This document shows positions 2,523-18,846 of a stretch of 18,846 nucleotides of DNA, piece by piece (positions within the stretch are counted from its first letter, which is position 1; each line of letters opens with the position of its first letter). The position numbers and the translations under genes are program-made. The stretch lies in contig CAZYCQ010000022.1 of NCBI GenBank assembly GCA_964645535.1, forward strand, positions 27,400-46,245, read 5' to 3'. The notes under the pieces were generated by a model, which made no database searches, was not told the DNA's origin, and was given only the letters and a program-made list of their open reading frames with translations. Origin of the DNA: an uncultured archaeon (lineage in GTDB: Archaea > Asgardarchaeota > Heimdallarchaeia > Heimdallarchaeales > Kariarchaeaceae).

Positions 2523-5459
2523 ATGCAAGATAGAAAACTCCCCATCCCCCCTTTGGAAGACAGAAAGGAATGGATCATCGTCGAAGAGGCTAGGGAACAC
2601 AACCTCAAGGGAATCAATGTGGCAATCCCACGCAACCGGTTCGTGGTCATCACTGGCCTCTCGGGCAGCGGCAAGTCATCCCTTGCCATTGATACCCTTT
2701 TTGTCGAAGGGCAACGGAGGTTTGTTGAATCACTGAGCTCCTATGCCCGTCAGTTCCTCGGCCAGCTCGAAAAGCCGCATGTCAAGGCAATCTCCGGGCT
2801 CAGTCCGGCCATCTGCATTGAGCAGAAGACTTCTTCCCACAATCCACGTTCAACGGTAGCTACTGTGACTGAAATCATGGATTACCTGAGAATCATGTAT
2901 GCCACCATAGGTAAACCTCATTGTCCTGTCTGTGGAGACCCAATTACCGGTCTTTCTGCAGAGGAGATTGTGGATCAGATTCTTCAATGGCCGGAAAAGA
3001 CCCGGTTCAAGGTGATCGCTCCCATTGTGATCAATGAGAAGGGGACACACAAGAAACTCTTCGGACAGTTGAAGAAAGAGGGCTTTATCCGCCTCGAGGT
3101 AAACGGAAGGGAAGTCTCCTTGGATGACGAAATGCCAGAGCTGGATAAGAACTATCGGCATGACATCTCCATTGTCGTCGACCGGCTTGTCCTGAAAGAG
3201 GATATTCGCAGTCGATTGACCGATTCCATTGAAAAGGCCTTGGAACGGGCCAATGGTCAAGTCATTATCGAAATAGTTGACAAGAAAAATCCACGGAAGG
3301 TCACCTTCAATGAGTATGCAGGTTGTCCTAAGGATGGCATTTCCGTTCCTGAACTTACCCCTCGGATGTTCTCCTTCAACAATCCAATTGGTGCCTGTGA
3401 GGAATGCATGGGACTAGGGGTTGTCAGGCAGGTGGATCCAGCTCTCATCATTCCCGACCCATCCTTGAGCCTGAAAGAAGGCGCAATTGCCACAGTGCCC
3501 AACAACAGAGATTCTTGGCAATATCAGATGGTTAAGGCAGTGCTTGAACATTATGGGGCGACTGAAGACACTCCAATCAATAAGCTACCCAAAAAGGCCT
3601 ATCATGCACTTATCTGGGGAACAAATGAGAAAATCAAGCTCCGAGTCGCCAGAAGCGAAGAAGAGGCCAAACGAAAGAACAAATCCAGTTTCAGCTACGA
3701 GGCTGAACGCAGGGTTGAGGGTCAGGTCAACATCATCAAGAGACGATATCTGAGCACTACTTCCCCTGGAATGAGACGCTACTATGAACAGTTTATGGCG
3801 GACAATCCGTGTCAATCCTGCCATGGAATGAAGCTCAAACCCATCTTCCTCGGGGTCAAGGTCGGCGGAAAGAACATCATGGAGGTATCGCAATTCTCTG
3901 TGAAGGAAGCCATTCAGTTCTTTGATGCCATTGAACTCACGGAAAAAGAGAAGAAAATCATCGAACAGGTCATGAAAGAAATCAAGGGAAGATTGGGCTT
4001 CCTTGCCAGTGTCGGGCTTGAATATCTCACTCTTGACCGAAAGGCCTCAACCCTCTCTGGTGGTGAGGCTCAGCGCATCAGGTTGGCTACACAGATCGGA
4101 AGTCGTCTTGTCGGGGTCATGTATGTTCTTGATGAACCGTCCATCGGTCTGCATCAAAAGGACAATGAACGCCTCCTACGTACATTTCTTGAACTCAGGG
4201 ATCTGGGCAACAGCGTCATTGTCATTGAACATGATGAGGATACCATCCGGACTGCCGACTATATCATTGACATGGGCCCTGAAGCAGGAATTCACGGAGG
4301 AGAAGTGGTTGCAGCGGGGACTGTGGAGGATATTGAAAAACATGAAACCTCCCTGACAGGCAAATACCTCCGTGGAGAGCTCTCCATTCCGATCCCCAAG
4401 AAACGGAGAAAAGGAAACGGGAAATCTCTCTGGATTCGTGGTGCCCAACACAACAACCTCAAGAACATCGATGTCGAAATACCGTTGGGCAAGTTCATCG
4501 TTATCACTGGTGTCTCGGGAAGTGGCAAATCAAGCCTTATCAACGGAATCCTTTGGAAAGAGCTTGCTCGGGTGTTCAACCGTGCAACAGACCGTGCAGG
4601 TAAACATAAGAAGATTGAGAACATCGAGGCTCTTGACAAGGTGATCATGATTGACCAGAAACCGATTGGACGTACCCCCCGTAGCAATCCTGCAACTTAC
4701 ACAAAGGTATTCGATGAAATCCGCAACCTATTTGCCAACCTCCCAGAATCCAAAGTACGCGGGTTCAAACCCGGACGTTTCTCATTCAATGTCAAAGGTG
4801 GGCGGTGTGAAGCATGCCAAGGCAATGGTTACAACAAGATCGAAATGAGCTTCCTATCTGACGTCTATGTAGACTGTGAGGTCTGTCACGGAAAACGATT
4901 CAACAAGGAAACCCTTGAGATCAAATACAAAGGCAAATCCATCGCAGATATCTTGGATATGTCAATTGATGAAGCCGCTGATTTCTTCGAGAACATTCCC
5001 AAAATCAAACGAGTGCTCTCAACTCTTCAGGCAGTCGGCTGCGGCTATCTCAGACTGGGACAATCCGCAACTACGTTGTCCGGCGGAGAATCCCAACGGA
5101 TTAAGCTCTCCCGAGAACTTTCCAAACGGGCAACCGGAAAAACACTGATCCTCTTGGATGAACCCAGCACCGGTCTGCACATGCATGATGTCAAGAAATT
5201 ACTCGAAGTGCTCCACAAGCTGGTTGATCGAGGAAACACCATCATTACCATTGAACATAACCTTGACATCATCAAAAACGCCGACCATATCATTGACCTT
5301 GGTCCGGAAGGCGGTGATCAAGGTGGTGAAATCATTGCACAGGGTACCCCTGAAGAGGTTGCAAAGATTGACAGATCATATACCGGTCAATTCCTCCGAA
5401 AGGTGCTTCTCCCGAAACAAAGAGCGGTGGTCAAGAAAAAGGCAAAAAGAAAGGTCTAA
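2523..5459 (+). CDS. uvrA: Excinuclease ABC subunit A (UvrA), about 978 aa
   Basis: Hallmark motifs: AREHNLK, GLSGSGKSSLA, EGQRRFVESLSSYARQFL, LSGGEAQRIRLATQIGS, VLDEPSIGLH, GVSGSGKSSL, PIGRTPRSNPATYT, FSFNVKGGRCEAC, CxxC zinc fingers, LSGGESQRIKL. The start is placed at ATG 2523 because of the RBS; the ORF-track ATG 2463 lies directly against the TATA box. Confidence 0.98.
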   Translation: MQDRKLPIPPLEDRKEWIIVEEAREHNLKGINVAIPRNRFVVITGLSGSGKSSLAIDTLFVEGQRRFVESLSSYARQFLGQLEKPHVKAISGLSPAICIEQKTSSHNPRSTVATVTEIMDYLRIMYATIGKPHCPVCGDPITGLSAEEIVDQILQWPEKTRFKVIAPIVINEKGTHKKLFGQLKKEGFIRLEVNGREVSLDDEMPELDKNYRHDISIVVDRLVLKEDIRSRLTDSIEKALERANGQVIIEIVDKKNPRKVTFNEYAGCPKDGISVPELTPRMFSFNNPIGACEECMGLGVVRQVDPALIIPDPSLSLKEGAIATVPNNRDSWQYQMVKAVLEHYGATEDTPINKLPKKAYHALIWGTNEKIKLRVARSEEEAKRKNKSSFSYEAERRVEGQVNIIKRRYLSTTSPGMRRYYEQFMADNPCQSCHGMKLKPIFLGVKVGGKNIMEVSQFSVKEAIQFFDAIELTEKEKKIIEQVMKEIKGRLGFLASVGLEYLTLDRKASTLSGGEAQRIRLATQIGSRLVGVMYVLDEPSIGLHQKDNERLLRTFLELRDLGNSVIVIEHDEDTIRTADYIIDMGPEAGIHGGEVVAAGTVEDIEKHETSLTGKYLRGELSIPIPKKRRKGNGKSLWIRGAQHNNLKNIDVEIPLGKFIVITGVSGSGKSSLINGILWKELARVFNRATDRAGKHKKIENIEALDKVIMIDQKPIGRTPRSNPATYTKVFDEIRNLFANLPESKVRGFKPGRFSFNVKGGRCEACQGNGYNKIEMSFLSDVYVDCEVCHGKRFNKETLEIKYKGKSIADILDMSIDEAADFFENIPKIKRVLSTLQAVGCGYLRLGQSATTLSGGESQRIKLSRELSKRATGKTLILLDEPSTGLHMHDVKKLLEVLHKLVDRGNTIITIEHNLDIIKNADHIIDLGPEGGDQGGEIIAQGTPEEVAKIDRSYTGQFLRKVLLPKQRAVVKKKAKRKV

Positions 5460-5542
5460 TCTACTTTTCCCAAACTTATAGGAATCCAACTTAGAATCAG
5501 CATTCCTATGATTTCCAAATTCTCCACAATAAAGATTTTCAA
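5335..5542 (+). repeat. Direct repeat R1, copy a (uvrA 3' end plus convergent permease B 3' end)
   Basis: 5335-5446 matches 9459-9570 with 7 mismatches in 112 bp. 5472-5522 is identical to 9590-9640 (51 bp). Confidence 0.95.
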
Positions 5543-5716: not shown

Positions 5717-6040
5717 TTACCTTTCCAATATTCCAACCCAGACATGCTTTTGGAAAGTTTCTGTATGAGATATCATTCTCCATGTCTTTCCTCTTTGGTG
5801 AAAAGCTTCCAACAAATCTGTCTGTTCTCCCTTGTCGATGTTTACTGTGAGTCATCAATTAGCACGATTTCTGAATCATTTGCAAACCCTATGATATGGA
5901 TATTCTCTGTTTTCCCCCCCCCATTCATTCCACCTTTGCATCAAGCAATAGCTTGAATGAAAGCAACTCACTTAACTCATCGATCCGCTTTCTGATCAAA
6001 GGTTATGTGCTTTTTGAAATTGAATATAATTCAGTTTTAT
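5717..6040 (-). pseudogene. Degraded ABC ATPase (paralog of 11891..12565) with Walker A deleted, frameshifts and stops
   Basis: Minus-strand pieces match the intact ATPase: IKLNYIQFQKAH ~ MKQDKIQFQRVY; RIDELSELLSFKLLLDAKVE ~ RIDELSELLSIKPLLDAKVE; GGE-QRIS; GFANDSEIVLIDD ~ GLVNDPEIVLADE; TVNIDK; AFHQRGKTWRMISH ~ GLHQRGKTLVMVSH. The start ATG has become ATA. Confidence 0.92.
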
Positions 6041-8650
6041 ACTTGCATCGTACCTTTTGAATTTGTAATATATTATGATTCCTCCCATGATTGCATAACC
6101 GATTGACCATCCAACTGCTTTCACTAACTCCTTCTCAAACAGCCATGGTATGCTTGGATAACTCGTTAACTTTCGTAAAAACCAAAATGTTCTCCACGAA
6201 TAGTACATTGCTCCAAAACTCATAGCAGATAGGAGAACGCCTATTATCTCGGTTTTGCGGTATTGTTCCAAAAATTTCCCCTTGTTCAGGCCACGTTGGT
6301 GAAGAATTTCCAAGATGTCTGGATGGATGATATTCAAAAGAACTGTTCCTACTGGAAAAACGACCAAGAATACCCAACAATGATTCATCCAATATTTAAT
6401 TTTATCTTGTAACTCTATTAAATAATAATGGGAATCGAATCCCCAATCATTCTCTCTCATGATTTTTCTTTGGGGATCAATTGATCTACTTAATTGAATT
6501 GTTGATGATGGGAATTTTGTCCCTAATTCCCTTTCTATAGTGTTGATGAGGGATGCTAGTTCCTCTGACTGAATATCGTCCTCCAGATCCAAGAAAAATC
6601 CAGATGCAGACATATTTTGTTCATTAGAACCAGTAATCTCCATATAAAGGTTCTTGGGCACGAATATGGCCTCTGAAAACATATATCCCACGTAAATTCC
6701 CGAAACTATTCCTTTTATTTTAATTTCTACTTCAAAACGAGAGAAATCATCAGTGGCAAACTCTAATTTAATTGTATCTCCAACCTGCAAATTCCATTTA
6801 ACTGCTAATGGTCCTGTTACAATCACTTCATTTTCTTTTATTTGGTTGAACAATTCCTTGGTGCCCAAAGGTTGGTATGTTCTCAGCACAAAGTTTTGCG
6901 AGCCCAAAATCAATCTAGAAAATGCTTTGAAATCGATTATCATTCCAGAAGTGAAATCAAAACCGGAGTAGATTGTTTCTGAGGAAAAAGGTACTGCCAA
7001 ATTTATGTCTTCCATATTGCTCAGGTTTTCTATGGCAGAAAACGGAGGATTACTTGGAATTGGAGACACTACTAAATCTCCTGGTGTGTACAAATCATCC
7101 TCGTTTTTAGGAGATTGGGTAAGACTTACAATAGTAAGGAAAATCAGGGCGAAGAGAACCCAATTTCTATAAGGTGCAAGATTTACTGGTTTTTTAACAA
7201 TCATTCCAACAGCCTGAATCCTCTGCTTCTTAATGGTTGGTATTTTTCTGTAGAACCCGGCAATGAAAAAGCTGTTCGCCAACATAAGTATTTGCAATAT
7301 ATTATTTATGCTTGACAACGGCACTGTCCATGGAACTATGATTGGAAGAAAATCAATAATAAGGAATATCAGTACCAAAAACTTCGAGCTAATCGTTTCA
7401 AACCGGTCGAGGAGGAAACTTTTGGGTGATGTTCTCTTTTTGGTCTCCATGGTGATTATCCGAGGTATCGAGATTTTTTCAGAAACTCCCCAACAAATGG
7501 CAGCAACTACGGTCATTAACGCAATTAATGCAGTCAAAATCCAAAACACATAGATGTTCATCCCAATGATCAAACGATCCAATCGAATCTCCAAAAACCT
7601 TATGCTCCAATAAAACAAAATGAATAAGATATCTACGGAAGCAATATTGGTCATGAAGATCAACAACAGAAACATTGAGCTTCTTTTTCTATCATATCCT
7701 CTGAAGTTCAGCATTTCGATTGTTCCTCTCAAATTCCTTCTTTGTTCTCGGATTGCAAGGACTAGTAAGCCCAAAAGCATGACTGTATTGAGAAAGTACA
7801 ATCTAAGACTGTCTCCTACGTTCCACAATAATTGTGATTCATAGTTGGCCAAAGCTTTTTCCAAATGAGGCAAAAATACAACCTCACTACTTTTGGATTC
7901 GGCTGCAAACAGTTGAACTTCTCTTGAGGCCTTGTTTGTAATATTTTTAACTTTCTTAATAAATCTGTTTGCATCTGGCATTTTTCCAATCCATCTGCTG
8001 TTAAACCATGCAAAGGAAATATTCCCTATGACCGGTAGGTATTTTAGCATATCCATATTTTTCCATGGCAAAATCATGAAATTAGTGGAAGAATAATTCA
8101 ATCCATTTTTAGTAAATGTAGACCTAAAATGTGACACCGTAAATTCATAAGACCCTTTATAAAATTGTTGTGAAATTTTTAACATGATTAGACTGTTTGC
8201 ATAGCGAATTGAATAGCCCGTCAGATTCAAATCTGTTAACATCTGATCCGAAATCGAAAAATTCAGATTCGATGAAGCAATTACCTCATCTTCCAATTCC
8301 GAAGAAAACAACAGAAGAACAGGCCTGCCTGGACCGAATTCCAATACTTGGTTGGAGAAGAACATCGAAGTGAGGTTGACGTTTTTATCAAGGGTTTCCA
8401 ACTTATCTTTTAATCCAATTATTTCGGTTACTGTTGTATCTTCATAAGAAAAAATAGGAAAGTAGGTAATATAAAGATCGAAAATTGGGTAATTACTAAA
8501 TCTCTGAAATTCTTCGACATCAACTTTGGAACTTTGAAGTTGAGGTGCCTGTACAGAAAGGAGTACCAATATGAACAGGATTGTGACTGATTTCCACTTT
8601 GTACGTCTGTAAGCTCTCAAAAGCGGAACAATTATGGAAAAAACCTTCAT
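5996..8650 (-). CDS. Permease A copy 1: large MacB/FtsX-like (type VII/ABC3) permease with two extracytoplasmic domains, about 884 aa
   Basis: Multiple hydrophobic segments. FtsX-type coupling motifs MLNFRGYDRKR and LHQRGLNKGK. MacB-PCD-like NEVIVTGPLAVKWNLQVGDTIKL. Full-length paralogy to 12562..15204. The start was moved to ATG 8650 (MKVFS...AYRRTKWK) because it aligns with the copy 2 start and lies 23 nt from a TATA box. Confidence 0.85.
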   Translation of the reverse strand: MKVFSIIVPLLRAYRRTKWKSVTILFILVLLSVQAPQLQSSKVDVEEFQRFSNYPIFDLYITYFPIFSYEDTTVTEIIGLKDKLETLDKNVNLTSMFFSNQVLEFGPGRPVLLLFSSELEDEVIASSNLNFSISDQMLTDLNLTGYSIRYANSLIMLKISQQFYKGSYEFTVSHFRSTFTKNGLNYSSTNFMILPWKNMDMLKYLPVIGNISFAWFNSRWIGKMPDANRFIKKVKNITNKASREVQLFAAESKSSEVVFLPHLEKALANYESQLLWNVGDSLRLYFLNTVMLLGLLVLAIREQRRNLRGTIEMLNFRGYDRKRSSMFLLLIFMTNIASVDILFILFYWSIRFLEIRLDRLIIGMNIYVFWILTALIALMTVVAAICWGVSEKISIPRIITMETKKRTSPKSFLLDRFETISSKFLVLIFLIIDFLPIIVPWTVPLSSINNILQILMLANSFFIAGFYRKIPTIKKQRIQAVGMIVKKPVNLAPYRNWVLFALIFLTIVSLTQSPKNEDDLYTPGDLVVSPIPSNPPFSAIENLSNMEDINLAVPFSSETIYSGFDFTSGMIIDFKAFSRLILGSQNFVLRTYQPLGTKELFNQIKENEVIVTGPLAVKWNLQVGDTIKLEFATDDFSRFEVEIKIKGIVSGIYVGYMFSEAIFVPKNLYMEITGSNEQNMSASGFFLDLEDDIQSEELASLINTIERELGTKFPSSTIQLSRSIDPQRKIMRENDWGFDSHYYLIELQDKIKYWMNHCWVFLVVFPVGTVLLNIIHPDILEILHQRGLNKGKFLEQYRKTEIIGVLLSAMSFGAMYYSWRTFWFLRKLTSYPSIPWLFEKELVKAVGWSIGYAIMGGIIIYYKFKRYDASIKLNYIQFQKAHNL

Positions 8651-8790: not shown

Positions 8791-9342
8791 ATGCAAAAAC
8801 GAATGTTGCGAACAACTGTAATTATTATTTTGTTGGTCTCTGCATTTGCTCCAATATCTACTTATCATACAGATGCTGAGGTGTTATATGAATTCTTGAT
8901 TGAATACAGGTTCTACCCCGCTCATTCCCATGATAATGGTAATACTGGCGATTTTAAAATTGAGTTTTGGTTGAACATTGATGGTGGTGAAAATAAAGTC
9001 GCAAATTCACAATTTGATAATTCTAGAGTGGGGATCCCAATTCCGATTGATGGTTATCTCACTGCTGATTCAGCATATTTAGATACCAATGACCTATATT
9101 GCTTTAAGGTATCCGAAGTGGATTTCTTAAATGCTAATGATAAGGTTATTCCAAGCAATGCTGAAACCGCGCCTAAAAATTGTTTCCCTCCATATGAACA
9201 ATTTTCACAACATAATATTGGTAGCATTATCTATTTAACGTATTATGAAGATGTTGTGCATTCGGATGGCTGTTTCTTGACAATTAGAGTAAAAATTACA
9301 GATATTTTAACAATCGGTGGTGGCCCAGTGCCCATCGAGTAA
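8791..9342 (+). CDS. Secreted hypothetical protein S1 (about 183 aa), possibly a C2-like beta-sandwich, C-terminal GGGPVPIE
   Basis: Basic n-region MQKR, hydrophobic h-region and TDA|EV signal-peptidase-I-like site. Colinear paralog of 15339..15902. Start chosen from RBS spacing and the shared MQKR; the ORF track starts at TTG 8776. Confidence 0.85.
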   Translation: MQKRMLRTTVIIILLVSAFAPISTYHTDAEVLYEFLIEYRFYPAHSHDNGNTGDFKIEFWLNIDGGENKVANSQFDNSRVGIPIPIDGYLTADSAYLDTNDLYCFKVSEVDFLNANDKVIPSNAETAPKNCFPPYEQFSQHNIGSIIYLTYYEDVVHSDGCFLTIRVKITDILTIGGGPVPIE

Positions 9343-9424: not shown

Positions 9425-9577
9425 ATTATTGATATTGATCCACCTAACAGCAAGGTCGTTGCACAGGGCACCTCTGAAGAGGTTGCAAAGGTTGACAGAT
9501 CATATACTGGTCAATTTCTTCGAAAGGTGCTTCTCCCGAAACAAAGAGCGGTGGTCAAGAAAAAGACAAAGACCTAG
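9425..9577 (+). pseudogene. uvrA: Duplicated 3' fragment of uvrA
   Basis: Translates as [50 protein letters not shown], versus UvrA [56 protein letters not shown]. No start codon. Confidence 0.93.
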
Positions 9578-9660
9578 GCTGTTTTTCTAAAACTTATAGG
9601 AATCCAACTTAGAATCAGCATTCCTATGATTTCCAAATTCACCACAATAAAGATCTTCAA
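9459..9660 (+). repeat. Direct repeat R1, copy b
   Basis: Matches 5335-5542; the two copies are about 4.12 kb apart. Confidence 0.95.
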
Positions 9661-11890: not shown

Positions 11891-12565
11891 CTAACCGTTA
11901 AGTAAATATCCTTTGTCAAATTTCAATACCCGATCCGCATCCCTGAACATCGGTTCCTCATGGGATACCATAACCAATGTCTTTCCCCTTTGGTGAAGAC
12001 CTTCAAACAGATCAATGATTTCCTTACGTCCTTCCTTGTCAATGTTTGCCGTGGGCTCGTCAGCTAGCACAATTTCCGGATCATTTACGAGACCCGTGGC
12101 TATGGATACCCTCTGCTTTTCTCCTCCACTTAAGGTTTCCACCTTGGCATCAAGCAGTGGTTTTATTGATAGTAACTCACTTAATTCATCGATCCGTCTC
12201 TCACGTTCTTCCTTTGGTTTCTCTGCAATGATCATCGGAATCTCAATGTTCTCACGGACTGTCAAGAAATCAATGAGGCCGAAATCTTGAAAGACCATTC
12301 CTACAGTTGAAATCCGGTACTGTGACAATTCTTCTTCAGTGAAATCGTGGATGATCTTCTGGTTAACAATCACTCTTCCACTTGTAGGTTTGTGTATCCC
12401 CATAATCAATTTGAGCATTGTCGATTTCCCACTCCCGTTGGGACCGTTGATGCCCACAAATTCCCCTTCTTTAATCCCAAAAGAAACGTCCGAAAGGGCT
12501 ACGGAATCCGTTCTTTGACCAAAGGCCATGTATACTCTCTGAAATTGAATTTTGTCTTGTTTCAT
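11891..12565 (-). CDS. ABC transporter ATP-binding protein, LolD/MacB/SalX-like subfamily
   Basis: Walker A GPNGSGKS, Q-loop GMVFQDF, signature LSGGEKQR, Walker B/D-loop VLADEPTANID, H-switch VSH. ATGA overlap with the permease A2 stop. Confidence 0.96.
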   Translation of the reverse strand: MKQDKIQFQRVYMAFGQRTDSVALSDVSFGIKEGEFVGINGPNGSGKSTMLKLIMGIHKPTSGRVIVNQKIIHDFTEEELSQYRISTVGMVFQDFGLIDFLTVRENIEIPMIIAEKPKEERERRIDELSELLSIKPLLDAKVETLSGGEKQRVSIATGLVNDPEIVLADEPTANIDKEGRKEIIDLFEGLHQRGKTLVMVSHEEPMFRDADRVLKFDKGYLLNG

Positions 12566-15204
12566 GCTTGCACCTCATACCTTTTGAATTTATAATATAT
12601 TATCCCTCCTCCCACCATTGCATACCCAAGCGACCATGCAATGACTTTCAGCAATTCCCTCTCAAATAGCCAAGGAATGCTAGGATGGGTTGTGGAGTTC
12701 CAGGATTGCAGACCGTTCAACAACCAGAAAACCCTCCAGGAAAAGTAGGCAACCCCTATGCTTAATGCAGACAACATGACCCCAATGAGTTCCGCTCTGC
12801 GATATTGTTCCAGAAACCTCTTCTTGTTCAATCCTCTTTGGTGAAGAACTGCCAATGTCTCAACATCGATGATGTTCAGCAGGACTGTTGCGGCTGGCAA
12901 AAGAACCATGAAAAACCAGAAATGGTTGAGGATGTAATTGTTTTCCAACTGTTGTTTCCCTAAATAATAGGCTGATCCGAATCCCCAACCGTTCTGTCGC
13001 ATGATCTTTCCTTGGGGATCGATTGCAGGGCTCAAATAAATTGTTGAATATGGAAATCTAGTTTCAAGCTTTTCTTCTATTGTTTCGATAAGCTCATATA
13101 ATCCTTCTGCGGTTTGGAGGTCGTTTTTAACATCCAAAAATAATCCAAAAGCCGTCATATTCATTTCAGTCATGCCTGTCACTTTCATGTAAAGGTCTTT
13201 AGAAAGAAACATGAGCTCTGAAAAAACTGATGAACCCATCTGGATGCTTGACGTTATGGCTTGCACTTGAACTACTGTTTCGAAGCTCTCGAAGAAACCA
13301 TCCCCAAAGGTTAATTTGATATTGTCGTTGACGTCCAAGTTCTCTTTGACTGCCAATGGACCTGTCACAATTACATCATTCATGTCCATTTGACGCCAGA
13401 TGTCTTTAGCGAAAAACGGATGATATACCCTTTGCGTAAAGCCATTCGAGGTATCAATCAAATTGGCTAATGCATCGAAATCTATTACCACCACCATTAT
13501 TGAATCAAAACCAATTTTTCCTCCTTTCAAGGTAAACGGTACTGCCTGGTTGATCTCATCCCATGTGCTCAAATTTTTCACATCCTGAAAGGACAAATTA
13601 TGGTCGGCTATTGGATAAATCCTTATATCCCCCGGCATGAATTTTTCTTCCTTAAAATCATAATTTCTTGTCAGACCTGCCATACTCAGGAGTAGCAATG
13701 CCAGAAGAATCCAGCTTCGGTACGGGGCAAGATGCCCTGGTTTTTTAATAATTGTTCCGACAACCTGGATCCTTCGCTTTTTGATCATTGGAATTTCTCG
13801 ATAGAATGCAACAATGAGGATGCTGTTTCCTATCATGAGTATTCGCATCATGTCATTCATGGTTGATGATGGCTTTGTCCATGATATTGTCAGTGGAAGG
13901 AGTGCCGTGAGAAGAATTATTCCTGCAAGAAGTTTCAATTTATTTCTTTCCAACCAAGCTGGTAGAGATTTTGACATTCCAGCACCTTTGTTGATAAACC
14001 TAAAAATCCTTTTTGGTGAAATCTTCAATGACATCTTCCAACTGATGAAGGCAACCACTGTCACCAATACGGTGAGTATGCTTAGGTTCATTATGATATA
14101 GTCGTTGAGCTCGGCTATCGTCTGATTTGTTTTAAGCTCAATAAATCCTATGACAAAATACACTAGCATCACAATGCTTCCGATCATCAATATATTGGTC
14201 GCGAAAATCAAGAACAAGGACATCGAACTCCGTTTTCTTTCAAAACCCCGGATGTTTAGGATTTCCACTGTCTTTTCCAATTGACGTCTCTGTTCCCGGG
14301 TCGCAAGTACCATCAATCCAACAAGCATCGCACTATTGAAAAAATAGGTTCCTATACTCTCTAAAACCTTTGTCCAATTTTCATACTCGTAATTTTTTAT
14401 GGCGTCTATTAATGGTGTGTTATATATAATCCGGTAACTTTCTGACTCTAATGAAAAAAATTGTACCTCTCTTGTGACTTGCTGTGTAATCTCTTCGACC
14501 TTGTCCCTAAACTTTGAACCTTTTGGAACTTTGCCGTTCCAAGGTCCCCAAAACTCTGCAAATGAGATATTCCCTACAACTGGCAATTGTTCGAGAATTG
14601 GCAACTCTTTCCATGGAAGAACCATGAAGTTATAGCTTGTGTAATTTACCCCATTTTGAGTGTAATTGGACCAAAAATGTAAATACGTAAACTCGTACTG
14701 GTATACAAAATCTAATTGTATAGGCGTTGGTAAATACTCTTCAGTATATTGGACTGTATATGTTGCAAGGTTCACATCTGCAAGCATCTGCTCCGTTATT
14801 GAGAAATTTAGGCGGGATGAAACAATTATCTCGTTTTCCAATTCTGAAGAAAACATTAAAAGGACAGGTTTACCCGAACTCAATTCCAACGCTTGGTTAG
14901 AAAAATACATTGCAGTGAAATTCATGTTATCGTTTTGGTTATCAATATCAGCCAATTTATCTCTCAATTCTGTTAACTCTGTCAATATCTTTTTGTCAAA
15001 AGAAAATACGGGATAGTATACCGCATAAAAGTCAAAAATCCAACCGTACTCAAAACGTTCAAGAGCTTCAACGTCCTGTGGAGCTCGTTGGATTTGAGGT
15101 GTCTGCACTGAAACAAGAATCAACACGAATAAAACTGATGTTGTCTTCCAATTGGTACGTCGATATGCAACTAAAAGAGGGTTGAATTTGGAAAAATAAT
15201 TCAT
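12562..15204 (-). CDS. Permease A copy 2: large MacB/FtsX-like permease, 880 aa, first gene of the intact A-ATPase-B operon
   Basis: Motifs ILNIRGFERKR, LHQRGLNKKR and NDVIVTGPLAVKENLDVNDNIKL. Translationally coupled to the ATPase. Confidence 0.88.
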   Translation of the reverse strand: MNYFSKFNPLLVAYRRTNWKTTSVLFVLILVSVQTPQIQRAPQDVEALERFEYGWIFDFYAVYYPVFSFDKKILTELTELRDKLADIDNQNDNMNFTAMYFSNQALELSSGKPVLLMFSSELENEIIVSSRLNFSITEQMLADVNLATYTVQYTEEYLPTPIQLDFVYQYEFTYLHFWSNYTQNGVNYTSYNFMVLPWKELPILEQLPVVGNISFAEFWGPWNGKVPKGSKFRDKVEEITQQVTREVQFFSLESESYRIIYNTPLIDAIKNYEYENWTKVLESIGTYFFNSAMLVGLMVLATREQRRQLEKTVEILNIRGFERKRSSMSLFLIFATNILMIGSIVMLVYFVIGFIELKTNQTIAELNDYIIMNLSILTVLVTVVAFISWKMSLKISPKRIFRFINKGAGMSKSLPAWLERNKLKLLAGIILLTALLPLTISWTKPSSTMNDMMRILMIGNSILIVAFYREIPMIKKRRIQVVGTIIKKPGHLAPYRSWILLALLLLSMAGLTRNYDFKEEKFMPGDIRIYPIADHNLSFQDVKNLSTWDEINQAVPFTLKGGKIGFDSIMVVVIDFDALANLIDTSNGFTQRVYHPFFAKDIWRQMDMNDVIVTGPLAVKENLDVNDNIKLTFGDGFFESFETVVQVQAITSSIQMGSSVFSELMFLSKDLYMKVTGMTEMNMTAFGLFLDVKNDLQTAEGLYELIETIEEKLETRFPYSTIYLSPAIDPQGKIMRQNGWGFGSAYYLGKQQLENNYILNHFWFFMVLLPAATVLLNIIDVETLAVLHQRGLNKKRFLEQYRRAELIGVMLSALSIGVAYFSWRVFWLLNGLQSWNSTTHPSIPWLFERELLKVIAWSLGYAMVGGGIIYYKFKRYEVQA
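12595..12948 (+). repeat. Direct repeat R2, copy a (3' end of permease A2)
   Basis: 12605-12948 is identical to 16405-16748 (344 bp). The match extends to 12595/16395 with one mismatch. Offset is 3800 bp. Confidence 0.97.
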
Positions 15205-15338
15205 TGATCCAATTCTTCCAATTTATTTTATAAATTTTGGGGAAATTTCAGAAATAATGAAAAAAAACAAAAAAAAAACAAGCATTTAAAAACCATACCT
15301 GTCTACATGCATCACCCAAAAATTCGGTGATGCATTCC
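15205..15338. promoter_or_regulatory. Divergent promoter region of module 2: minus TATA TTTATAAA (15227-15234), A8-C-A10 tract (15260-15278), plus TATA TTTAAAAA (15285-15292), GGTGA RBS (15326-15330)
   Basis: Layout and motifs are conserved with 8651-8790. Confidence 0.7.
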
Positions 15339-15902
15339 ATGCAAAAACGAAAGTTAAAGACAATGGTGTTCATAATTATGGTGGCGTCTGCATTGTTCCC
15401 ACTTTCTACATATCAAACCAATGCAGAGGTTCTATATGAATTTCTAATTGAATATAGATTATATGTGGCTGATATTTCTGACCCGCTTCCCAGTGGGGAA
15501 TTCAAAGTCGAATTTTGGCTACTCATTGATAATTTGGAATATAAAATTCATTCAGAGACTTACGAAGGTATGCGTCCCGGAAGTTTAACACCTTCTTCGG
15601 GTTTCCACTCAGCTTATTCTGCATATATTGACTCTGATGACAGGTATTGCACAAACGTCTTTGAATTGGATACTTGGCCCAATGCTGATGATAAGATCAT
15701 TCCAAGCGATCCTCAGGTTCAAAGGTATTGTTTCACCCCTTATTCCTTATTTACCTCTTCAACACGAACTGAGGGAAGCTTTACCTCTCTAACTTATTAT
15801 CAGGATCCTGTCAATCAGGAACTTAATTGGCTCGAAATTCGAGTGACCATTTTGGATATAACCGGCAATGGTGGCGGTGGTAGTCCAGTGCCCATTGAGT
15901 GA
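15339..15902 (+). CDS. Secreted hypothetical protein S2 (about 187 aa), paralog of S1, C-terminal GGGGSPVPIE
   Basis: MQKRKLK, h-region and TNA|EVLYEFLIEYR. GGTGA lies 8 nt upstream of ATG 15339; the ORF track starts at GTG 15327. Confidence 0.85.
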   Translation: MQKRKLKTMVFIIMVASALFPLSTYQTNAEVLYEFLIEYRLYVADISDPLPSGEFKVEFWLLIDNLEYKIHSETYEGMRPGSLTPSSGFHSAYSAYIDSDDRYCTNVFELDTWPNADDKIIPSDPQVQRYCFTPYSLFTSSTRTEGSFTSLTYYQDPVNQELNWLEIRVTILDITGNGGGGSPVPIE

Positions 15903-15904
15903 TG

Positions 15905-16394
15905 TCAAAATTTCATTTCAGATACTAAAATTTCCTCATGTACCTGCTTTTCAATCTTCTTCAATTCCAGGTTCTGTTTTGCGATTTTCAGCAAACGGAT
16001 ACTTTCTGATTTCTTTATCCTCCATTGTCCTTTGTGGTAGCTGCCCATCTTGGTATTGAACAGGAGGTAAAACCCCTTGAAACAGAAGGCAAACTTGAGA
16101 TCATCAATAATCAGGACGTAAACTTCGAATTCACCATTGTGTGTTGTACTCGGGGATTGGTGTCTCGTTAGTCAAAAATCGCGTCTGAAAAGGTGGGAAA
16201 TGTCACTATGTTGGCATCCATCGGAGTAATCAGTGTATCCTTGAAGCTTAAATTACACTTAATCAGGTATGGAATAATTCACAACTACATTTTTTCTGGA
16301 GGATATTCCCTATGGATCAATACCTCCCAAGAACTTTCCAAATGGGAAACCGGAAAAACCTTGATATTCTTGAATAAACCCAGTCCTGATTTAC
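15905..16394 (-). pseudogene. Probable degraded gene remnant of unknown family
   Basis: An 88-codon open frame (16171-15905) lacks an upstream start: ...HNGEFEVYVLIIDDLKFAFCFKGFYLLFNTKMGSYHKGQWRIKKSESIRLLKIAKQNLELKKIEKQVHEEILVSEMKF*. Protein-like, stop-interrupted pieces lie upstream (GLFKNIKVFPVSHLESSWEVLIHREYPPEKM*). Confidence 0.4.
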
Positions 16395-18846
16395 ATATAT
16401 TATTCCTCCTCCCACCATTGCATACCCAAGCGACCATGCAATGACTTTCAGCAATTCCCTCTCAAATAGCCAAGGAATGCTAGGATGGGTTGTGGAGTTC
16501 CAGGATTGCAGACCGTTCAACAACCAGAAAACCCTCCAGGAAAAGTAGGCAACCCCTATGCTTAATGCAGACAACATGACCCCAATGAGTTCCGCTCTGC
16601 GATATTGTTCCAGAAACCTCTTCTTGTTCAATCCTCTTTGGTGAAGAACTGCCAATGTCTCAACATCGATGATGTTCAGCAGGACTGTTGCGGCTGGCAA
16701 AAGAACCATGAAAAACCAGAAATGGTTGAGGATGTAATTGTTTTCCAATTCCTGTTTCAACATGAGATAGGAAGATCCGTAGCTCCATCCATTCTGCTGT
16801 GCGATTCTTCCTCGCGGATCGAACCCCGAATTCATATGGATTTGCGCTAAAAATTTGGTTCCAAATGAATTTCTTATGGTTTCAAAAAGAGTGTCTAATT
16901 CCTCTGCGGATTGAAGGTCATCTCTGACATCCAAGAAGTATCCGAAAACGTGAATGTTCGCCTCTGTTTTATTCGACAATTTCATATAAAGATCCTTGGA
17001 AAGAAAGATGGTCTTTGAAAAATCTGATCGAATTCCTGTAAAGATACCTGAGGTAATGGCTCCAACTTTGACAACTGCTTCAAATCTCTCCCTGTCGTCA
17101 TTCTCCAAGGTTATTTTCAGGTCATCATTGACCTGCAAATTCATTTTGACTGCTAGTGGACCGGTCACAATTACATCATTTATGTCCCGTTGGCTCCAGA
17201 CGTCCTTTGCAAAAAGTGGCTGATATACTCGTTGCGTAAATTCCTTTGACGTAGCAATCAACCTGGCCAATGCATCGAAGTCGATCACCATTACCGTTGT
17301 TAAATCTGTGCCAATGTACCCTGCCATTGATGCATAGGGAACTGCTTGGTTGATTTCATCCAATGTGTTCAGGTTTTCCACTTCGGGAAAGAACAGATCG
17401 TGGCTTGATATTGGGGAGACCGCGATATCTCCCGGAATGGCCTCTTCTCCCTTGTATTCATAATGTCTTGCAAGACCTGCAACACTGAGAAAAAGCAACA
17501 GCACAAGTATCACGCTCCGGTATGCTACCAGATGGCTAGGTCTTTTCACGACCGTTCCTATGACCTGAAAACGTCTTATTTTGATGGCGGGGATCTCTCG
17601 ATAGAATACCACAACGAGCAGGCCGTTGCTTGCCATGAGTGTTGGCAGCATATCATTCATACTTGACGAAGGTCTTGTCCATGACACAACCAACGGAAGC
17701 AGAACCAAAAGAAGAATTATCCCTGCTAAAAGTTTTAGCCCATTTCTTCCAAGCCAACCTTGCGGTATTGGTGATTTTGATGTGCCCCTTGTCCTACTCA
17801 ACATATCTAGCATCTTTACCAATGAGACCTTCAACGCCAGCTTCCAACAGATGGCCGCAATCCCTGCCATCAGTACGGTGAGAATGCTTAGATTCATGAG
17901 TATGTAGTCGTTGATTCCGATTATCAATCGATCTGTCCGGGTTTCAAGAAGCCATATGATAAAATACATCAATATGACTAGGCTTCCAAGAGATACGATG
18001 TTGGTCATGAAAATCCCAAAAAGAACCGATGAACTCCGTTTCCTGTCATAACCCCGAAGATTTAGGATATCGACAGTCTTTTCCAACTGACGCCTTTGTT
18101 CTCTGATGGAGAGCACCAATAATCCAACAAGCATTGCAGTGGTGATGGAATATATTCCTATACTTTCCAAAATTCTGAACCAATTCTCATTCTCATATTT
18201 TGCCAAGTTTTTATCCAAAAGTATGTTGTATATGATTTGGTTACTTTTCGACTCAGCAGTAAAAAGTTGAACCTCTCTGGTGACCTGCTGTGTGATGTCT
18301 TTGACTTTTTTCCTGAATCCGCTCCCTTGGGGAATCTCCCCGTTCCAAGGTCCCCAAAATTCTGCAAAAGAGGCGTTTCCCACAACTGGCAATTGCTCGA
18401 GAATTGGCAGTTTTTGCCATGGCAGAACCATGAAATTATAGGATGTAAAATTCACTCCTTCTTTGCTAAAGGTGGAAATGAAATGAGATTTTGTGAATAC
18501 ATAGGGATAGGCAAGGTATAGTTGTGTGTCTGTTGGTATATGTCCCTCAGTATATTGGATGGAGTATCCTGTAAGGTTCACATCTGCAAGCATCTGTTCC
18601 GTAATTGTGAAATTCAGATGCGGGGAAACCATTATCTCGTTTTCCAGCTCTGAAGAAAATATCAAAAGAACAGGTTTACCTGAACCGAATTCTAGGGCTT
18701 GATTGGAGAAGTACATTGTGGTGAGGTCCATATGTTCATCGATATCGACCAATCTGTCCCTCAGGCCTTTTAGTTCCGCCATTATTCCATTGTCATAGGA
18801 AGAAACGGGATAATAAATAGCATATAGGTCAAAAATCGATCCATTC
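16317..18846 (-). CDS. Permease A copy 3: large MacB/FtsX-like permease, 5'-partial, with a non-homologous C-terminal tail
   Basis: The frame stays open past 18782 to the window edge (NGSIFDLYAIYYPVSSYDNGIMAEL, aligning to YGWIFDFYAVYYPVFSFDKKILTEL of copy 2). The true start should be about 50 codons outside the window. Confidence 0.88.
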   Translation of the reverse strand, partial: NGSIFDLYAIYYPVSSYDNGIMAELKGLRDRLVDIDEHMDLTTMYFSNQALEFGSGKPVLLIFSSELENEIMVSPHLNFTITEQMLADVNLTGYSIQYTEGHIPTDTQLYLAYPYVFTKSHFISTFSKEGVNFTSYNFMVLPWQKLPILEQLPVVGNASFAEFWGPWNGEIPQGSGFRKKVKDITQQVTREVQLFTAESKSNQIIYNILLDKNLAKYENENWFRILESIGIYSITTAMLVGLLVLSIREQRRQLEKTVDILNLRGYDRKRSSSVLFGIFMTNIVSLGSLVILMYFIIWLLETRTDRLIIGINDYILMNLSILTVLMAGIAAICWKLALKVSLVKMLDMLSRTRGTSKSPIPQGWLGRNGLKLLAGIILLLVLLPLVVSWTRPSSSMNDMLPTLMASNGLLVVVFYREIPAIKIRRFQVIGTVVKRPSHLVAYRSVILVLLLFLSVAGLARHYEYKGEEAIPGDIAVSPISSHDLFFPEVENLNTLDEINQAVPYASMAGYIGTDLTTVMVIDFDALARLIATSKEFTQRVYQPLFAKDVWSQRDINDVIVTGPLAVKMNLQVNDDLKITLENDDRERFEAVVKVGAITSGIFTGIRSDFSKTIFLSKDLYMKLSNKTEANIHVFGYFLDVRDDLQSAEELDTLFETIRNSFGTKFLAQIHMNSGFDPRGRIAQQNGWSYGSSYLMLKQELENNYILNHFWFFMVLLPAATVLLNIIDVETLAVLHQRGLNKKRFLEQYRRAELIGVMLSALSIGVAYFSWRVFWLLNGLQSWNSTTHPSIPWLFERELLKVIAWSLGYAMVGGGIIYVNQDWVYSRISRFFRFPIWKVLGRY
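16395..16748 (+). repeat. Direct repeat R2, copy b (3' end of permease A3)
   Basis: Identical to 12595-12948 except for one base (16404 vs 12604). Confidence 0.97.

Follow-up and report, generated by a model that had tools for sequence, protein, structure and literature searches.

Two paralogous permease genes of an archaeal genome, A2 and A3, are diverged along most of their length, yet in the contig examined ~115 codons near their 3′ ends are identical at the nucleotide level. The question raised by this locus is how the two genes came to share one 3′ end: by a recombinational switch that changes which permease body heads an ATPase operon, as a sequence-only reading had proposed, by gene conversion between paralogues, which the same reading offered as an alternative, or in the course of assembly. 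The material examined is a stretch of 18,846 nucleotides (the window), which ends within A3.

Organization of the locus

Judged from its sequence, the locus is an array in which old segmental duplication has placed three copies of one unit in tandem. The unit comprises the 3′ end of uvrA, a second permease gene (P768), an ABC ATPase gene, a permease gene of the A family and then a divergent gene for a secreted protein, S. Units II and III are collinear and 74% identical over 3.7 kb, with only a 114-nt uvrA fragment (16270..16383, forward strand; 76% identical to uvrA 5056-5167) between them, and the left end of unit II is a duplicate of the uvrA 3′ end (9456..9660, forward strand; 89% identical to 5332-5542).

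The three A genes all lie on the reverse strand. A2 (12562..15204), recognized by its open reading frame, paralogue alignment and fold, encodes an 880-aa double-module protein resembling type VII ABC permeases and heads an A2-ATPase-P768 operon. A3 (16317..18846) continues onto a second contig (C2), which carries its N-terminal 53 codons and is joined through an exact 55-nt overlap; the full protein is 894 aa, and its last ~25 residues are an antisense reading of the uvrA remnant. A1 (5996..8650), the third paralogue, is 50% identical to A2. The sole intact ATPase gene (11891..12565, reverse strand) has a start that overlaps the A2 stop as ATGA, an arrangement that predicts translational coupling, and P768 (9574..11880, reverse strand), a distant (20%) paralogue of A, is the last gene of the operon. 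An ATPase pseudogene remnant (5765..5987, reverse strand; 73% identical to 11960-12196) lies downstream of A1. Between A2 and S2 (15339..15902, forward strand) lies a divergent intergenic region (15205..15338) that includes a TTTATAAA box as well as an A10 run and is conserved across units I to III; S2 is a small secreted-type partner with a signal/TM N-terminus and the C-terminal sequence GGGGSPVPIE.

By its position and matches, the uvrA fragment between units II and III marks a deletion of the unit III uvrA end, P768, ATPase and A3 tail. Units I and III lost their ATPase and P768 genes through later deletions, and the one in unit III also took the last ~11 codons of A3. A relative in the same genus has an ATPase of its own beside each A-like gene. 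The array is absent from the 30 nearest genomes, where only G002 has homologues (24-28% identical), and an A-family alignment searched against genome and metagenome contig collections recovered no relatives.

Permease fold and ATPase class

The modelled module consists of helices at residues 9-31, 264-296, 314-355 and 364-395 around an alpha/beta domain (55-240), at an overall pLDDT of only 57. In this predicted structure the topology is that of a type VII ABC permease: TM1, an extracytoplasmic alpha/beta domain and TM2-4. The top Foldseek matches of the A2 C-terminal half are all LolC/E, MacB, YbbP, HrtB or BceB (E-values down to 3.9e-10), with target-normalized TM-scores of 0.58-0.60 measured on isolated periplasmic domains, and there is a weak profile match to the ABC permease chain 9p4u (E 0.037). 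The predicted fold places the A proteins in the type VII ABC (MacB/FtsX-type) permease class. No Pfam FtsX or MacB_PCD match was found at E≤0.01, searches of Pfam and NCBIfam gave no family for A1, A2, A3, P768 or S, and the A family is nearly an orphan, with three cluster representatives in 1.84 billion. The ATPase belongs to the FtsE/LolD/MacB class; its best matches are TIGR02673 FtsE, LolD and MacB, all below equivalog cut-offs.

A 344-bp identity tract in A2 and A3

Self-comparison of the window reveals a perfect direct repeat of 344 bp (12605-12948 = 16405-16748) with a spacing of 3800 bp, present in two copies in the whole 3.6-Mb genome. Copy 1 (12605..12948, reverse strand) is part of the 3′ end of A2 (residues ~753-866) and copy 2 (16405..16748, reverse strand) the corresponding part of A3 (residues ~752-866). 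The copies occupy homologous positions in the same codon phase and, as had been noted from the sequence, flank most of A2, the promoter, S2 and the uvrA remnant. According to the helix layout of the model, the repeat encodes TM2, the cytoplasmic coupling region, TM3, the loop and TM4 of the second FtsX/MacB-type module.

Outside the repeat, A2 and A3 have 66% protein and ~68% DNA sequence identity, only ~60% of their synonymous third positions match, and none of the other 30-codon windows exceeds 84% identity. A 344-nt identical run would arise by chance at 69% background identity with a probability of ~1e-52; the synonymous-site identity of 344/344 nt is subject to the caveat of a kmax-55 assembly that we discuss below. 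The equivalent segment of A1 is 66% identical in DNA sequence, and A1 has no identity tract.

The two edges of the repeat differ in kind. The tract had been described as starting at 12595 and as sharply bounded. Homology does begin there, continuing 10 nt leftward of the repeat (12595-12604 and 16395-16404) with a single synonymous mismatch at 12604/16404, but perfect identity starts at 12605. The right edge (12948/16748) is the sole true identity step; at the left edge, a rearrangement junction, the homology of A3 to both A1 and A2 ends altogether, and this edge is, on the alignment, the breakpoint of the old deletion and not a conversion boundary.

Probable gene conversion between A2 and A3

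The tract has the marks of interlocus gene conversion: the paralogues are diverged outside it, its synonymous identity is beyond chance, and it is homologous and in phase in the two genes. There is good support for domain-restricted conversion of the last FtsX/MacB-type module, whether or not the perfection of the repeat is an artefact. The identity windows and the fold matches agree in this with the alternative offered earlier, that conversion homogenizes the C-terminal FtsX-type module as the outer domains diverge. We consider it likely that the full explanation is a duplication array, followed by deletions and then by homogenization of the A2 and A3 3′ ends through ordinary gene conversion. 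The conversion would have proceeded by homologous recombination between paralogues 3.8 kb apart, with a tract that has one limit inside the genes (12948/16748) and otherwise extends as far as homology is available. It would presumably depend on RadA, and RadA-family genes are present in the genome. A possible selective reason is that A3, which lacks an ATPase of its own, would stay compatible with the sole remaining one.

A recent simple tandem duplication was also considered and is ruled out, as the units are only 74% identical outside the tract.

A diverged patch in a second MAG

A second MAG (protein RMG30204.1, locus tag D6732_16930) is of the same species, with ~0.14% amino-acid divergence (8 differences in ~5,570 aa outside the patch described here). 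Its A2 protein (P0001) is identical to that of the window at 871 of 880 residues, and all nine differences fall within residues 818-837. This 20-codon patch, VAYFSWRVFWLLNGLQSWNS in the window (12694..12753, reverse strand), has its A3 twin at 16494-16553 and takes in the final part of TM3 together with the TM3-TM4 loop, which in A2 and A3 is 5 residues longer than in A1, P0020 and P0021. The A3 of the second MAG carries the window sequence at the patch, and its own A2 and A3 differ there at 9 of 20 codons. The 3′ ends of the two genes, taken from the window to be identical throughout, do differ in the second MAG within the patch, and this counts in part against the sequence-only reading. The remaining 66 + 29 codons of the tract are identical in this protein-level comparison.

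A search for short protein fragments over the tract that might represent other patch alleles found none, and neither the alternative patch nor a deletion junction was found elsewhere in the binned contigs of this genome. A point against the conversion reading is that a diverged patch between identical flanks calls for a second tract, for a patchy one or for selection acting on the loop, each less simple than one event.

Perfection of the repeat and the assembly

Contig ends of this genome share 55-mers in 51 cases and no longer words at k≥77, the signature of a short-read assembly with kmax of 55, and we infer from these overlaps an assembler of the SPAdes type. A de Bruijn assembly of this kind cannot report small differences between copies that are flanked by more than 55 identical bases. 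Assemblers of the SPAdes type collapse equal-length bubbles between identical flanks longer than k, within limits on bulge length. In metaSPAdes, bulges are masked aggressively and repeats are resolved on a consensus graph (PMC5411777). The patch would have identical flanks of ~198 and ~96 nt, both longer than k=55, and the P0001 patch is an equal-length alternative for one copy, different at 9 of 20 residues at the protein level. An indirect hint of strain mixture comes from contig C2, whose end falls a single base short of A3 codon 71. The two MAGs differ at this codon, suggesting that both alleles contributed to this read set.

Since the second MAG has the patch in A2, and bubbles collapse at k=55, the uninterrupted 344-bp perfection is unreliable, and the perfect identity may have been produced in part by the assembler. 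On balance we lean towards the patch having been masked by assembly in this contig; a real conversion of A2 by A3, of very recent date in this strain, is somewhat less probable but a serious alternative.

Alternative explanations

The assembly could be doubted more radically, in that the whole repeat might be a misjoin in which the end of one gene was threaded onto the other. The genome is a short-read kmax-55 MAG with apparent strain mixture, and a loop graph (entry-repeat-loop-repeat-exit) is equivalent to a deleted chromosome plus a circle unless read pairs span it. However, the independently deposited MAG encodes full A2 and A3 in which the bodies, the two distinct tails and the 66 + 29 identical codons all recur, so that four of four body/tract/tail junctions have been seen twice, and A1 and P0020 show the region to be homologous, conserved coding sequence. 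A misjoin is accordingly very improbable. The same in-frame homology to A1 and P0020 rules out a mobile element or MITE as the identity of the tract.

A programmed cassette switch, the main proposal of the sequence-only reading, is not supported. It would hold that a real repeat owes its perfection to selection, so that crossover by RadA deletes or re-inserts an A2/S2 circle and subpopulations arise with different permease bodies coupled to the sole ATPase. It is geometrically possible: the direct repeats share one codon phase, and a simulated 3800-bp deletion yields an open chimeric reading frame in which, as had been predicted, one crossover fuses the A3 body in frame to the native tail, ending ...YYKFKRYEVQA with a stop that overlaps the ATPase start as ATGA. 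There is one ATPase for three permeases, and RadA paralogues are present. A perfect 344-bp repeat at 3.8 kb recombines at some rate in any cell. But A3 is neither silent, promoterless nor truncated as a donor would be; it is a full open reading frame that has a start of its own, lies behind a conserved divergent promoter with a TATA sequence and is partnered by S3, and just its last ~11 codons have been replaced. Only one pair could switch, because A1 has no matching tract (66% identity), and the deletion could be undone only if the circle survived and integrated again. No recombinase, integrase or invertase occurs among the Pfam-scanned open reading frames of the window, which also contains no inverted repeats and no recombination-promoting element, and the neighbours on contig C2 are HAD, S9 peptidase and GFO genes. 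In the second MAG, A2, A3 and the ATPase lie together on one 123.6-kb contig; the deletion form is not seen there, and no deletion-type or chimeric protein is on record. Should this strain also have the patch, the longest perfect run would shrink to ~198 nt. We therefore hold a programmed switch to be extremely improbable. Were it true, the locus would be a system by which an Asgard-type archaeon varies a surface transporter through recombination, with the cognate S lost or retained, and the two MAGs, in differing at the patch, would show such exchange in progress.

Extreme purifying selection on DNA or protein (for example an embedded RNA or an overlapping gene) in place of recombination would suit a segment that is the most conserved part of the protein, with TM helices and the coupling region, but protein constraint cannot yield the tract, because synonymous sites are identical over ~115 codons while the A1 DNA is at 66% and A2/A3 silent sites elsewhere at ~60%; this pattern effectively refutes selection alone, which has next to no chance of being right.

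Comparison with known systems

The probable gene conversion between A2 and A3 has a close archaeal parallel. Domain-restricted conversion between tandem paralogues is described for mtrA-1/mtrA-2 in Methanococcales and Methanomicrobiales (PMC4632066), and a prokaryote-wide survey has dealt with concerted evolution among paralogues (PMC6053082). As in mtrA-1/mtrA-2, tandem paralogues in one operon region have one domain homogenized and the rest diverging, and the homogenized part belongs to proteins of one complex. The present case differs in being known from one species (two MAGs), with no long phylogenetic record, and in its short tract (344 bp), which adjoins a deletion breakpoint and whose perfection is uncertain from the assembly method. 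A2 and A3 would be a clean small case of concerted evolution confined to the ATPase-facing module after two of three paralogues lost their ATPase, and a candidate story of co-adaptation; the mechanism is not new.

The Neisseria pilE/pilS and Borrelia vlsE systems are similar in having paralogous segments near one expression site, where recombination could swap a variable body with a fixed end. Those systems have promoterless or truncated silent cassettes, many donors and non-reciprocal transfer to one locus, often with a dedicated cis element. In A2 and A3, by contrast, each gene has its own promoter and partner gene, there is one tract pair, and the predicted event is a deletion.

The bulge masking of metaSPAdes (PMC5411777) corresponds in its setting, namely equal-length paths between identical flanks longer than k, a strain-mixed metagenome and repeats resolved on a consensus graph; here it is deduced from the k=55 signature and the variant of the other MAG rather than demonstrated for the contig. 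In kmax-55 metagenome assemblies bulge masking can create or lengthen apparently perfect repeats between paralogues, and perfection in itself should for that reason not be read as a sign that an exchange was recent or that a recombination site is being maintained.

The more unusual object is the array itself, in which orphan permeases of the type VII ABC class are accompanied by secreted proteins with a PVPIE tail. Among the type VII transporters YbbAP (E. coli, 9ge6), BceAB, LolCDE and MacB, the C-terminal half of A2 is predicted to fold like LolC/E, MacB and YbbP. Its partner ATPase belongs to the FtsE/LolD/MacB class, and in its size (~880 aa) and its two modules of TM helix, ectodomain and three TM helices A2 resembles YbbP. 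The A proteins differ from the known type VII permeases in lacking a Pfam FtsX or MacB_PCD match, in forming a near-orphan family, in being archaeal and in their pairing with a small secreted S protein.

Gene content and predicted fold

Three large paralogous genes, A1 (5996-8650), A2 (12562-15204) and A3 (16317 to the window end), lie on the minus strand, each divergently paired with a small plus-strand gene, S; a 224-aa ABC ATPase of the FtsE/LolD/MacB class is encoded at 11891-12565. Neither A1-A3 nor P768 (768 aa), a distant paralogue that is last in the A2-ATPase operon, matches Pfam or NCBIfam. The model of the A2 C-terminal half (pLDDT low, 57 overall; 70-85 in the ectodomain) has a layout of TM helix, alpha/beta domain and three long helices, and its Foldseek matches are exclusively LolC/E, MacB, YbbP, HrtB and BceB (E to 3.9e-10); for the isolated periplasmic domains of LolE and MacB the target-normalised TM-score is 0.58-0.60. 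From this layout and these matches, the A proteins are predicted to be double-module type VII ABC permeases. An exhaustive profile search with A1-A3 of 1.84 billion cluster representatives returned three matches (A1 itself, the 373-aa fragment P0020 and a same-genus homologue, P0021), and A-family alignment scans of genome and metagenome contig collections found no relatives; the family is nearly an orphan despite its clearly MacB/LolC-like fold.

The three S proteins (~185-190 aa; 8791-9342, 15339-15902 and, on contig C2 of the same genome, L010:11085-11657, minus strand) all begin with a signal/TM N-terminus, keep a conserved framework containing two cysteines, and end in an invariant GGG(S)PVPIE motif, a free C-terminus not followed by any TM anchor; none matches Pfam. 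The motif may tag the protein for sorting or for docking to the adjoining transporter. An 18-nt tandem repeat of ~6 copies (3-110), encoding a short peptide repeat, sits at the 3' end of a prenyltransferase-type alpha/alpha-toroid ORF (2-2290, minus).

Contig C22, which contains the window, ends within A3. C2 ends in an exact 55-nt overlap with it inside A3 (window 18792-18846 = L010:11946-12000), and joining the two restores the missing N-terminus for a complete ORF of 894 aa. Upstream of A3 are its S3 gene and a conserved divergent intergenic region with a TTTATAAA box and an A10 run, common to all three units; these features set A3 apart from a silent cassette.

History of the locus

Self-comparison reveals three degenerate copies of one unit. 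The uvrA 3' end (5332-5542) reappears at 9456-9660 (89% identical), a more upstream uvrA piece (5056-5167) reappears at 16270-16383 (76%), and an ATPase remnant (5765-5987; 73%) adjoins A1. Units II (12595-16267) and III (16395-20082, coordinates extended onto C2) are collinear at 74% identity, separated solely by a 114-nt uvrA fragment. In G002, the only same-genus genome with distant homologues (L008:7-3466 and L009:687-2565; 24-28% identity), each A-like gene has an ATPase gene of its own immediately after it; these ATPases are 64% and 59% identical to that of the window. The arrangement fits an ancestral permease-ATPase unit. For this reason every unit would originally have comprised uvrA', P768, ATPase, A and S, with the ATPase later lost from units I and III; the unit III deletion would also have taken the last ~11 codons of A3, in whose place ~25 residues are now translated from the uvrA fragment in antisense. 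The uvrA copy by unit II is 89% identical and that by unit III only 76%, yet A1 is the most diverged paralogue, and is nearer to the foreign fragment P0020 (61%) than to A2 (52%). These figures do not fit a simple order of duplications: homogenisation may have acted on the uvrA/uvrA' pair too, or else unit I arrived separately.

A perfect repeat in A2 and A3

A perfect 344-bp direct repeat (12605-12948 = 16405-16748), spaced by 3800 bp, is present in two copies only in the 3.6-Mb genome; the A1 counterpart is 66% identical. In codon-aware comparison A2 and A3 are ~68% identical in DNA, ~60% of third positions agree where the amino acid is shared, and every other 30-codon window is at or below 84%; against this background a 344-nt run has P ~1e-52. 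The two copies share one codon phase, and a simulated 3800-bp deletion leaves an open chimeric ORF with the native A2 tail, its stop overlapping the ATPase start as ATGA. The repeat and its geometry, as described in the sequence-only reading, are thus correct. The sharp boundaries that it described hold at the right edge (12948/16748), where identity drops from 100% to ~65% between still homologous sequences; the left edge is the breakpoint of the unit III deletion, and homology continues 10 nt leftward with one synonymous mismatch. The right edge has the only identity step between homologous sequences. By the model, the part of the second module that the repeat encodes runs from TM2 through the cytoplasmic coupling region and TM3 to a loop and TM4. 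Its G+C (0.46) is above that of the rest of A2 (0.38) and A3 (0.42); since the A1 equivalent is likewise slightly richer (0.39 vs 0.36), coding constraint may account for this better than biased conversion does.

Comparison with a second assembly

A protein search recovered a same-species NCBI MAG (RMG30204.1, labelled Methanobacteriota/Euryarchaeota archaeon), whose ATPase is identical and lies with A2 and a full-length A3 on one 123.6-kb contig. Nine proteins compared between the MAGs (~5,570 residues) show eight scattered differences. A2 has nine, all in codons 818-837 (12694-12753), inside the repeat; at these positions the A3 of the second MAG agrees with the window. At the protein level, A2 and A3 of that MAG are identical over 66 codons and again over 29, flanking a diverged 20-codon patch in the most variable loop of the region, which in A2/A3 is five residues longer than in A1, P0020 and P0021. 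A short protein-fragment search over the tract found no other patch alleles.

A SPAdes-type assembler can collapse an equal-length bubble between identical flanks longer than k; metaSPAdes is described as masking bulges aggressively and as working out repeats on the consensus graph (PMC5411777). Contig ends in this genome share 51 55-mers and none at larger k, which suggests a kmax-55 short-read assembly. The patch is a potential bulge of this kind (~58 nt, equal length, between identical flanks of ~198 and ~96 nt), presumably within SPAdes default size limits, and the contig would therefore look perfect with or without A2's own patch. The binned contigs lack the alternative patch, as expected after masking, and C2 stops one base short of A3 codon 71 (N here, D in the second MAG), which suggests a strain mixture in the read set. 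Of the four residues at which A3 differs between the MAGs, three fall in codons 25-79, a clustering that suggests strain variants assembled together or a further small tract of recombination. We consider it somewhat probable that the assembler masked the A2 patch, and a genuine recent A3-to-A2 conversion there a realistic possibility. The contig does contain the repeat; its perfection is doubtful. Whether the patch was masked or converted, the flanking identity must be real, because both assemblies show it and an assembler requires anchors that are identical and exceed k in length; a conversion tract over the ATPase-facing module is therefore well supported.

Origin of the tract

A complete misjoin of the repeat is unlikely, as A2 and A3 proteins with distinct tails occur in both assemblies. 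The evidence does not support the RecA/RadA-type cassette switch first proposed: A3 comes with a promoter and a partner gene of its own, the tract is common to one pair only, no recombinase is among the window ORFs scanned with Pfam and no cis element lies near the locus, a crossover is predicted to delete in one direction only, and the second MAG keeps A2, A3 and the ATPase on one contig. Selection alone cannot explain the identity, which extends to silent sites.

The best explanation is ordinary RadA-dependent gene conversion between the tandem paralogues A2 and A3, confined to the ATPase-facing module and stopping where homology ends; six Rad51/RadA-family genes are present. Such conversion might keep A3, which has lost its own ATPase, matched to the single one that remains; A1 lacks a homogenised tract. 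Domain-restricted conversion has been described for the tandem archaeal paralogues mtrA-1/mtrA-2 (PMC4632066), and conversion between paralogues has been surveyed across prokaryotes (PMC6053082); the tract is a real conversion tract and a fresh instance of this known process.
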